Source: a phage. From it: a stretch of 218 bases of DNA. The position numbers and the translations under genes are program-made. The notes under the pieces are model-generated. The model was given only the letters and a program-made list of their open reading frames with translations, ran no database searches and had not been told where the DNA came from. The stretch is taken from the sequence record M25604.1; one strand, written 5' to 3'. Positions 1 through 218 of this stretch are shown here, one piece after another. How positions within the stretch are numbered: position 1 is the first letter of the stretch; the number at the start of each line of letters is the position of its first letter.

Positions 1-11
1 GGGGACCCCCC
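1..11. repeat. 5' arm of terminal inverted repeat (ggggacccccc)
   Basis: Pairs with 207-218: g1-4 with c215-218, a5 with t214, c6-11 with g207-212, with t213 as a single bulge. Gives an 11-bp helix joining the two window ends. Confidence 0.6.
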
Positions 12-21
12 GGAAGGGGGG
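6..21. other. Stem-loop H0: 6-bp G/C stem (6-11 with 16-21), loop ggaa (GNRA-type on + strand)
   Basis: cccccc-ggaa-gggggg is perfectly complementary. Competes with the terminal helix for the C-run at 6-11. Confidence 0.5.
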
Positions 22-41
22 ACGAGGTGCGGGCACCTCGT
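22..41. other. Stem-loop H1: 8-bp stem (22-29 with 34-41), loop cggg
   Basis: acgaggtg is the exact reverse complement of cacctcgt; no mismatches. Confidence 0.6.
23..29 (+). repeat. Direct repeat copy 1 of cgaggtg
   Basis: Identical 7-mer at 191-197; both are complementary to cacctcg at 34-40. Confidence 0.6.
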
Positions 42-53
42 ACGGGAGTTCGA

Positions 54-69
54 CCGTGACGAGTCACGG
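54..69. other. Stem-loop H2: 6-bp stem (54-59 with 64-69), loop cgag; 16-bp palindrome
   Basis: ccgtga pairs with tcacgg; the whole ccgtgac-ga-gtcacgg is a palindrome with a 2-nt centre. Confidence 0.55.
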
Positions 70-72
70 GCT

Positions 73-86
73 AGCGCTTTCGCGCT
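73..86. other. Stem-loop H3: 5-bp stem (73-77 with 82-86), loop tttc
   Basis: agcgc pairs with gcgct. Not followed by a T-run, so not an intrinsic terminator. Confidence 0.5.
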
Positions 87-90
87 CTCC

Positions 91-97
91 AGGTGAC
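91..97 (+). repeat. Direct repeat copy 1 of aggtgac
   Basis: Identical 7-mer at 193-199; the shorter gtgac also occurs at 56-60. Confidence 0.5.
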
Positions 98-119
98 GCC
101 TCGTGAAGAGGCGCGACCT
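91..119. other. Stem-loop H4: two-part stem, outer 91-94 with 116-119 and inner 97-102 with 108-113, separated by a 2x2 internal loop; apical loop gtgaa
   Basis: aggt pairs with acct and cgcctc with gaggcg; internal loop is ga (95-96) opposite cg (114-115). The only hairpin here with an internal loop. Confidence 0.55.
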
Positions 120-142
120 TCGTGCGTTTCGGCGACGCACGA
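120..142. other. Stem-loop H5: 8-bp stem (120-127 with 135-142), 7-nt loop ttcggcg
   Basis: tcgtgcgt is the exact reverse complement of acgcacga. Directly abuts H4, so coaxial stacking is possible. Confidence 0.6.
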
Positions 143-147
143 GAACC

Positions 148-170
148 GCCACGCTGCTTCGCAGCGTGGC
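148..170. other. Stem-loop H6: 10-bp stem (148-157 with 161-170), loop ttc; 23-bp perfect palindrome
   Basis: gccacgctgc is the exact reverse complement of gcagcgtggc. Longest perfect stem in the window. Confidence 0.65.
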
Positions 171-171
171 C

Positions 172-195
172 CTTCGCGCAGCCCGCTGCGCGAGG
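172..195. other. Stem-loop H7: 7-bp core stem (175-181 with 186-192), loop cccg, extendable to 172-195
   Basis: cgcgcag pairs with ctgcgcg. Extension adds t174-a193, t173-g194 (wobble, RNA only) and c172-g195. Confidence 0.55.
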
Positions 196-199
196 TGAC
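191..199 (+). repeat. Direct repeat copy 2 of cgaggtg, overlapping aggtgac copy 2
   Basis: cgaggtg at 191-197 matches 23-29; aggtgac at 193-199 matches 91-97. Confidence 0.6.
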
Positions 200-212
200 C
201 CCCGAAGGGGGG
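199..212. other. Stem-loop H8: 5-bp G/C stem (199-203 with 208-212), loop gaag
   Basis: ccccc-gaag-ggggg. Competes with the terminal helix for the G-run at 207-212. Confidence 0.5.
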
Positions 213-218
213 TTCCCC
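207..218. repeat. 3' arm of terminal inverted repeat (ggggggttcccc)
   Basis: Reverse complement is ggggaacccccc versus 5' ggggacccccc, i.e. a single-base indel difference. Confidence 0.6.

Follow-up and report, generated by a model that had tools for sequence, protein, structure and literature searches.

The 218 nt sequence examined here (the window, meaning the whole stretch of DNA that was analysed) is very probably MDV-1, a non-coding 'parasitic' template of Qβ replicase in which local hairpins keep both strands single. It had a G+C content of 71%, started with GGGG at the 5′ end and terminated with CCCC at the 3′ end. The same ends were found on the complement, so that both strands carried GGGG at the 5′ end and CCCC at the 3′ end, as the oligo-C rule for Qβ replicase templates demands. 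The combination of a match to the Qβ 5′ end, 218 nt and GGGG...CCCC ends is one that we take to be that of MDV-1. The assignment and the primer sites on which it draws are as follows.

1–218, plus strand: whole window, very probably MDV-1 (+) RNA written as DNA (primer matches, length, Qβ-likeness, absence from natural collections).
44–61, minus strand: exact match (18/18) to the MDV-1 primer CGTCACGGTCGAACTCCC of Usui et al. 2015 (PMC4652763).
66–81, plus strand: exact match (16/16) to the MDV-1 primer ACGGGCTAGCGCTTTC of Usui et al. 2015 (PMC4652763).

The MDV-1-specific part of each of the two primers was found exactly once in the window, and neither was found in shuffled sequences. The pair points outward across the loop of one of the hairpins described below (H2). 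Usui, Ichihashi and Yomo amplified an MDV-1 plasmid outward from the insertion site with just these primers, and they placed the site for foreign inserts at 63–64 of an MDV-1 whose length is quoted as 222 nt (PMC4652763). In the window, this site comes after position 61, inside the H2 loop. The 222 nt laboratory molecule therefore has two extra nucleotides upstream of position 61 and, by subtraction, two downstream. This offset fits the window as the original 218 nt reading of the molecule.

The length of the window is the one originally reported for MDV-1. The sequence of MDV-1 (midivariant) RNA was reportedly determined in 1973 by Mills, Kramer and Spiegelman. Later papers give Mills et al. 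1973 as the standard MDV-1 reference, and according to several papers, Spiegelman's replicating RNA had 218 nucleotides. Hence, the window appears to be the original 1973 reading, with ~4 nt fewer than the current laboratory MDV-1. When the literature was searched for the window ends and internal segments as strings (DNA and RNA), the sole true match was the Usui primer. A string match in PMC2475669 was rejected as an unrelated toy sequence. We infer the full-length identity from 34 primer nucleotides, from the shared length and ends and from the homology to Qβ. Compared with the MDV-1 of Mills, Kramer & Spiegelman 1973, the window agreed in length, in the primer sites around the insertion loop, in the GGGG...CCCC ends, in the multi-hairpin fold on both strands and in the likeness of its 3′ end and of an internal block to Qβ. 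Nothing was demonstrably different, and the present-day plasmid-borne version has 222 nt.

The first-pass annotation had described nine tandem hairpins with perfect arms of 5–10 bp, covering about 82% of the window. All nine were present at their places, and their arms were exact reverse complements.

1–5, plus strand: 5′ leader GGGGA; its complement is the 3′-terminal UCCCC of the minus strand, the putative initiation site there (read from the sequence).
6–21, plus strand: H0, the 5′-terminal hairpin CCCCCC-GGAA-GGGGGG, 6 bp (near-repeat of 199–212).
22–41, plus strand: H1, 8 bp, loop CGGG (exact reverse-complement arms, fold).
45–90, plus strand: predicted three-way junction, a GGAG/CUCC stem pairing 45–48 with 87–90 around H2 and H3 (MFE prediction).
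54–69, plus strand: H2, 6 bp, loop CGAG (exact reverse-complement arms, fold).
73–86, plus strand: H3, 5 bp, loop UUUC (exact reverse-complement arms, fold).
91–119, plus strand: H4, stems of 4 and 6 bp on either side of a 2x2 internal loop (GA/CG), terminal loop GUGAA (homologous to the Qβ hairpin 4097–4125).
120–142, plus strand: H5, 8 bp, 7 nt loop UUCGGCG; 9 bp with U128.G134 (exact arms, fold).
148–170, plus strand: H6, 10 bp, loop UUC (exact reverse-complement arms, fold).
174–193, plus strand: H7, 8 bp, loop CCCG; one G-U pair extends it to 172–195 (exact arms, fold).
199–211, plus strand: H8, the 3′-proximal hairpin CCCCC-GAA-GGGGG, 5 bp (197–203/208–214 in the local fold with a span of ≤45).
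214–218, plus strand: 3′-terminal UCCCC, putative de novo initiation site of the plus strand (sequence; oligo-C requirement from the literature).

The nine hairpins comprised 66 bp, made up of 50 G-C pairs, 16 A-U pairs and no G-U pair. The earlier statement that the core stems lack G-U pairs thus held (0 of 66 bp were G-U), while the extended helices of the minimum free energy (MFE) fold contained 3 G-U pairs among 78. The hairpins spanned 174 of the 218 nt (80%), and ~82% was reached with slightly longer variants of H7 and H8, in agreement with the coverage given before. The only irregularity noted at the time, the 2x2 internal loop (GA/CG) of H4, was confirmed. Loops were small (3–7 nt) and contained one to five G/C bases each. 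The two ends of the window formed an 11 nt inverted repeat.

The hairpins were counted greedily as non-overlapping perfect Watson-Crick hairpins (stem ≥5, loop 3–8), and the count was compared with 5000 dinucleotide shuffles. Nine hairpins were observed, compared with 1.8±1.2 in the shuffles (a maximum of 6). They contained 165 nt (shuffles: 29±19, a maximum of 105) and 63 stem bp (shuffles: 9.9±6.3, a maximum of 35). None of the 5000 shuffles attained the observed number of hairpins, nucleotides or base pairs. Four stems were at least 8 bp long, with a shuffle mean of 0.05. The hairpin density had been called well beyond chance before any null was computed, and this impression proved right (nine versus a mean of 1.8 and a maximum of 6 in the 5000 dinucleotide shuffles).

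The folding energy pointed in the same direction. The MFE was −140.1 kcal/mol for the plus strand (shuffles: −103.4±5.5, z −6.7) and −135.2 kcal/mol for the minus strand (shuffles: −98.6±4.7, z −7.8). In the comparison with dinucleotide-shuffled controls that the first-pass annotation had proposed, the native energies therefore lay far below the shuffle means on both strands (z −6.7 for plus and −7.8 for minus).

The reverse strand formed the identical nine hairpins in mirror image. The energy of the nine-hairpin structure was −115.8 kcal/mol on the plus strand and −112.7 kcal/mol on the minus strand. When the MFE folds of both strands were computed independently, 82% of the plus-strand pairs recurred in the minus strand, compared with 28±20% in shuffles; a fraction as high as that of the window was found in 3 of 400 shuffles. 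The terminal hairpins H0 and H8 were formed on both strands, and each strand had a hairpin adjoining its 5′ GGGG. The strong structure on both strands and the terminal stem that characterize RQ templates were thus found in the window, as seen in the z-scores and the 82% of mirrored pairs.

G-U pairs were scarce. Their share of the MFE pairs was 3.8% in the window, 10.9±2.9% in composition-matched shuffles and 10.7±3.4% in the Qβ genome (40 windows). A share as low as that of the window occurred in 4 of 400 shuffles. The tests of mirrored pairs and of G-U share each gave a P value of ~0.01. Wherever one strand has a G-U pair, the other has an A-C mismatch, and a stem can therefore form in both strands only if it consists of Watson-Crick pairs. 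We infer that selection on both strands accounts specifically for the Watson-Crick purity. Alternatively, the purity could have come about incidentally, if the most stable stems were selected at high G+C content and G-U pairs carried no particular penalty. Selection for stem stability and selection on two strands would both drive G-U pairs down, and the data fit either.

The thermodynamic optimum differed from the local fold. In the MFE fold, H0 and H8 were replaced by an end-to-end panhandle pairing 1–11 with 207–217 and 16–20 with 199–203. The three G-U pairs among its 78 pairs (128–134, 173–194 and 4–214) lay in extended helices. The local-hairpin fold had −124.9 kcal/mol versus −140.1 kcal/mol for the MFE, i.e. 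it was ~15 kcal/mol higher. In the local-hairpin fold the 3′ CCCC was free, whereas the MFE panhandle had most of it paired. Taken literally, the panhandle would hide the initiation site, and the working fold would therefore have to be a kinetically formed local one. Sequential folding during synthesis would likely account for a free 3′ CCCC despite the panhandle optimum. Such sequential folding is said to have been proposed earlier for MDV-1 itself.

Both strands of the window were aligned with the complete Qβ genome (FJ483840) by Smith-Waterman, with 100 shuffled windows as the null (21.9±2.2, a maximum of 30). Two blocks stood out.

185–218, minus strand: 3′-terminal block, whose complement is identical to Qβ genome nt 1–34 at 30 of 34 positions (Smith-Waterman score 48, blastn).
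79–125, minus strand: internal block homologous to Qβ(+) 4091–4138, with 38 of 48 columns identical, ~79% (Smith-Waterman score 44).

The score of the internal block was ~10 sd above the shuffles. Its Qβ counterpart, 4091–4138, corresponds to nt 81–128 of the Qβ minus strand when counted from the 5′ end, a nearly equal distance to that of the block in the window (79–125). In blastn against phage records, the single meaningful match was the Qβ 5′ end, with the complement of window 185–218. Together, the two Qβ-like blocks comprised ~81 of the 218 nt. For the remaining ~137 nt, no counterpart was found in Qβ by Smith-Waterman or in the E. coli genomes. Further Qβ homology outside the two blocks was rejected, as the next Smith-Waterman scores were 18–23 and within the shuffle range, and the rest of the ends, when aligned, revealed no persuasive similarity. 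The Qβ homologies of MDV-1 were reportedly noted in the literature of the 1970s–80s.

To judge from these alignments, the plus strand of the window looks like a Qβ minus strand in which the 3′ end and a block near the 5′ end were kept and ~4 kb between them were lost. The Qβ-like blocks presumably supply the terminal and internal features recognized by the replicase. The window and the Qβ minus strand share the replicase, the end rule, the 3′ end (30/34) and the block at 81–128 (38/48) with a conserved hairpin. Windows of the Qβ genome also showed mirrored folding as in the MDV-1 window, with 61% of pairs. The difference is in size, coding and pairing: Qβ has 4.2 kb, codes for proteins and has ~11% G-U pairs, whereas the window has 218 nt, is non-coding and has 71% G+C and 3.8% G-U pairs.

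The conserved hairpin allowed one comparison of stems. The Qβ hairpin 4097–4125, the counterpart of H4, was an uninterrupted helix of 12 bp with one U.G pair, and its complement had an A-C mismatch. Its energy was −16.7 kcal/mol on the plus strand and −13.5 kcal/mol on the minus strand. In the window, H4 had −17.0 kcal/mol on each strand. Relative to Qβ, the U.G pair was replaced by C-G, a neighbouring A-U pair was replaced by G-C via changes on both sides, and two pairs were opened, giving the internal loop. These changes suggest maintenance of the stem at the RNA level, in the direction that two-strand selection predicts, in a comparison of two sequences that carries no statistical weight. 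The covariation in homologs that the first-pass annotation had looked to was therefore seen in part: H4 and its Qβ counterpart offered one compensatory change (A-U to G-C) and one change of U.G to C-G, and a single comparison of this kind has no statistical weight.

Natural sequence collections were searched for the window or parts of it. Exact matches to two core segments of 24–26 nt (H4; H5 with linker) were absent from 185,579 species genomes, the JGI metagenomes and IMG/VR. In the PLSDB plasmids, blastn gave chance-level matches only, none of them covering more than 26% of the query. No match to the window and no host-derived segment were detected in 5,426 E. coli genomes. In Rfam at E≤10, all ten matches were below the gathering score (best: sbcD with 20.2 bits versus 40). 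The matches to sbcD, PhotoRC-I, CRISPR-DR58 and others were rejected as sub-threshold chance matches driven by GC-rich tetraloop hairpins. A replicator from the laboratory should be absent from the genome, metagenome, viral and plasmid collections, as was seen here, and this absence rules out a repeat of genomic origin.

Plasmids of high GC content and actinophages gave short blastn matches of low significance. The sequence GGGGRACCCCCCNNNNGGGGG, a degenerate pattern for the terminal hairpin, was found in 33 IMG/VR contigs; these were judged to be chance matches, since most of them lay within contigs that greatly exceed the length of a levivirus genome. An ORF of 31 aa starting with GTG (103–198) was rejected as coding, its arginine/alanine-rich composition being ordinary for a GC-rich frame.

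Perfect Watson-Crick stems had originally been read as more typical of DNA-level palindromes, such as REP/MITE-like elements, protein-binding or recombination sites. We give almost no credence to the idea that the window is a palindromic repeat of a bacterium with high GC content (REP/BIME, MITE, or a group of palindromes for protein binding, recombination or termination), which would act as duplex or extruded DNA. Perfect palindromic stems at 71% G+C, the 11 nt inverted repeat at the ends and the short chance-level blastn matches in GC-rich plasmids and actinophages would suit it, and bacterial REP/MITE repeats share with the window their short, perfect, GC-rich palindromes. However, such repeats are multi-copy genomic DNA, while the core segments had no exact match in the 185,579 species genomes, the JGI metagenomes and IMG/VR, plasmid matches covered ≤26% of the query and the E. 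coli genomes had no match. Nor would a repeat of this kind explain why the MDV-1 primers match exactly and why there is homology to Qβ. The DNA-level reading was thus abandoned, with no trace of the sequence in genomes, metagenomes, IMG/VR, PLSDB and E. coli. That the window comes from nature, as a structured non-coding RNA or a short coding stretch of a GC-rich organism, is just as hard to credit. The strong folding z-score and the one 31 aa GTG ORF at 103–198 speak for it, but no Rfam family came near its gathering score (best: sbcD, 20.2 versus 40 bits), no homologues were found in the searched collections and the ORF had the composition of any GC-rich frame. Moreover, the complement folded equally well, which is unusual for a non-coding RNA that acts as one strand.

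Artificial or derived origins were weighed as well. It is very improbable that the window is a synthetic RNA made by rational design (RNA-origami, Eterna or benchmark type) or a computer-generated hairpin sequence. The GGGG start would suit in vitro transcription, and small loops, perfect stems and the lack of a natural homologue would all be in keeping with design; yet 34 nt match MDV-1-specific primers, 218 nt is the historic MDV-1 length, and a designer would not make two diverged copies of Qβ segments (79–88% identical) that are colinear with the Qβ minus strand. The earlier suggestion of a very recent origin or a synthetic design was therefore near the truth as regards the laboratory, since MDV-1 is an RNA that both originated and was selected in test-tube reactions of Qβ replicase, and wrong as regards the design, since it is an evolved replicator. 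Somewhat less remote, though still improbable, is another template of Qβ replicase that is akin to MDV-1, for example a selected mutant, S222 or a deletion parasite with MDV-1 termini. According to the literature, parasitic RNAs of ~220 nt that keep the MDV-1 termini arise readily, and the laboratory MDV-1 has 222 nt and not 218. Against this, the window has a length of precisely 218 nt. The primer sites lie on either side of the standard insertion loop, and what separates them looks like native hairpin sequence. Even if the window were such a related template, its biology and the explanation of its hairpins would be identical to those of MDV-1.

As a template of the MDV-1 type, the window can be set against what is known of the enzyme. 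Qβ replicase consists of the phage β subunit and the host proteins EF-Tu, EF-Ts and S1. Its templates need a 3′ oligo-C and terminal stems. Both strands act as templates, and the product is single-stranded, with no melting step; protein S1 promotes the release of the single-stranded product. The reaction is isothermal because the product leaves single-stranded. The formation of a duplex from plus and minus strands is a dead end that limits amplification. Exponential amplification of MDV-1 by Qβ replicase in vitro has been reported in the literature (PMC4652763 among the sources), and for inserts in MDV-1, stems suppressed dsRNA, while large or G/C-rich loops promoted it (PMC4652763). The window fits these template rules, with CCCC on both strands, 5′ terminal hairpins, 80% of its length in short-range hairpins and small loops.

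How the strands are copied, and how structure keeps them apart, is established in the literature. The replicase starts de novo at the 3′-terminal oligo-C and copies along the template. Template and product are set free as individual single strands, and the complement, which also ends in CCCC, is copied likewise. With no helicase and no heat step, each strand snaps into local hairpins on leaving the enzyme and so avoids the duplex. As the loops are small, there are few unpaired G or C bases at which annealing could begin. The stems would be needed in both strands, which would permit Watson-Crick pairs only. Selection would act purely on replication speed and stability, without constraints of coding, packaging or the host. 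The need for stems in two strands and this selection for speed and stability would together lead to a molecule with 71% G+C that consists nearly entirely of perfect, mirror-symmetric hairpins.

The RQ or '6S' RNAs (RQ135, microvariant, S222 and deletion parasites from systems in which replication is coupled to translation) are comparable. Like the window, they are non-coding, replicated on two strands and heavily structured, with G-rich 5′ and C-rich 3′ ends, and they are limited by the formation of plus/minus duplexes. Unlike the window, they reportedly have other sequences and origins.

The hairpin finding of the first-pass annotation is correct but already explained: MDV-1 is a textbook molecule, and nothing about it is new as a discovery. 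It was among the first RNA molecules to be fully sequenced, and for fifty years it has been a workhorse of in vitro evolution with Qβ replicase, of amplification diagnostics and of replication systems for artificial cells. What did not apply was the premise that RNA-level selection leaves G-U pairs behind, as the RNA was selected on both strands and G-U pairs were disfavoured. The rule that the absence of G-U pairs indicates a DNA-level function fails where both complementary RNA strands are selected to fold. The window is useful as a calibration case. A lack of G-U pairs can be the mark of an RNA under selection on two strands as well as of a DNA-level function.

One further reading goes beyond this, and we regard it as unlikely: MDV-1 would derive from the Qβ minus strand by internal deletion and would have been 'hardened', and its traits may mark unknown replicase parasites. 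The hardening would consist of the wobble pair being purged and A-U being replaced by G-C, with both strands equally stable, as seen in a single hairpin of a single molecule. If this reading is true, only the use as a signature would be new, the Qβ homologies themselves having reportedly been described before. In that case, G-U depletion, mirror folding and equal stability of the strands would together form a signature by which RNAs that are copied on two strands without a helicase may be recognized in metatranscriptomes.

The predicted minimum free energy (MFE) structure of the window RNA joined the two ends in a panhandle, with positions 1–11 paired to 207–217 and positions 16–20 paired to 199–203. 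The two terminal hairpins, H0 (6–21) and H8 (199–211), were absent from this structure, and the panhandle stood in their place. The MFE was −140.1 kcal/mol; when pairs were limited to spans of ≤45 nt, the most stable fold reached −124.9 kcal/mol. In this predicted structure, the panhandle would hide the 3' CCCC, the initiation site of Qβ replicase. For this reason, the functional fold of the window RNA is probably kinetic rather than thermodynamic.

The two ends also carry a near-identical direct repeat, CCCCGGAAGGGGGG at window 8–21 and CCCCCGAAGGGGGG at 199–212. On either strand, the replicase therefore meets an almost unchanged 5' hairpin and an identical 3' tail. A pattern scan with a degenerate version of the terminal-hairpin motif, GGGGRACCCCCCNNNNGGGGG, found it in 33 IMG/VR viral contigs (L002–L034). 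Most of the matches lay in the interior of contigs that far exceeded the length of a levivirus genome.

The laboratory version of MDV-1 is slightly longer than the window: it has 222 nt, and its site for foreign inserts is at 63–64 (Usui et al. 2015, PMC4652763). According to the primer numbering in the same paper, which covers window 44–81, window position 61 corresponds to position 63 of the 222-nt MDV-1. Laboratory MDV-1 therefore has two additional nucleotides upstream and two downstream with respect to the 218-nt window.

No similarity to the Qβ or E. coli genomes was detected for window 1–78 and 126–184 (~137 nt). Deriving MDV-1 from the Qβ minus strand by loss of the interior, with Qβ-like blocks at 79–125 and 185–218, leaves the origin of these two segments unaccounted for. 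A 10-nt exact match, TGCGTTTCGG, was found between window 123–132 and Qβ 84–93 on the same strand. As its score was no better than the shuffle range, the match is probably due to chance. The only open reading frame of at least 20 aa was at window 103–198 on the plus strand. It starts with GTG and encodes 31 aa, many of them Arg and Ala, and is probably an artefact of composition.

In the Qβ genome itself (FJ483840, 40 windows of 218 nt each), 61±17% of the MFE pairs were mirrored on the complement. This share was high compared with the 28% in shuffles of the MDV-1 window, which were not matched to Qβ in composition. The mirrored pairs in the Qβ windows are consistent with a folding pressure on both genome strands.
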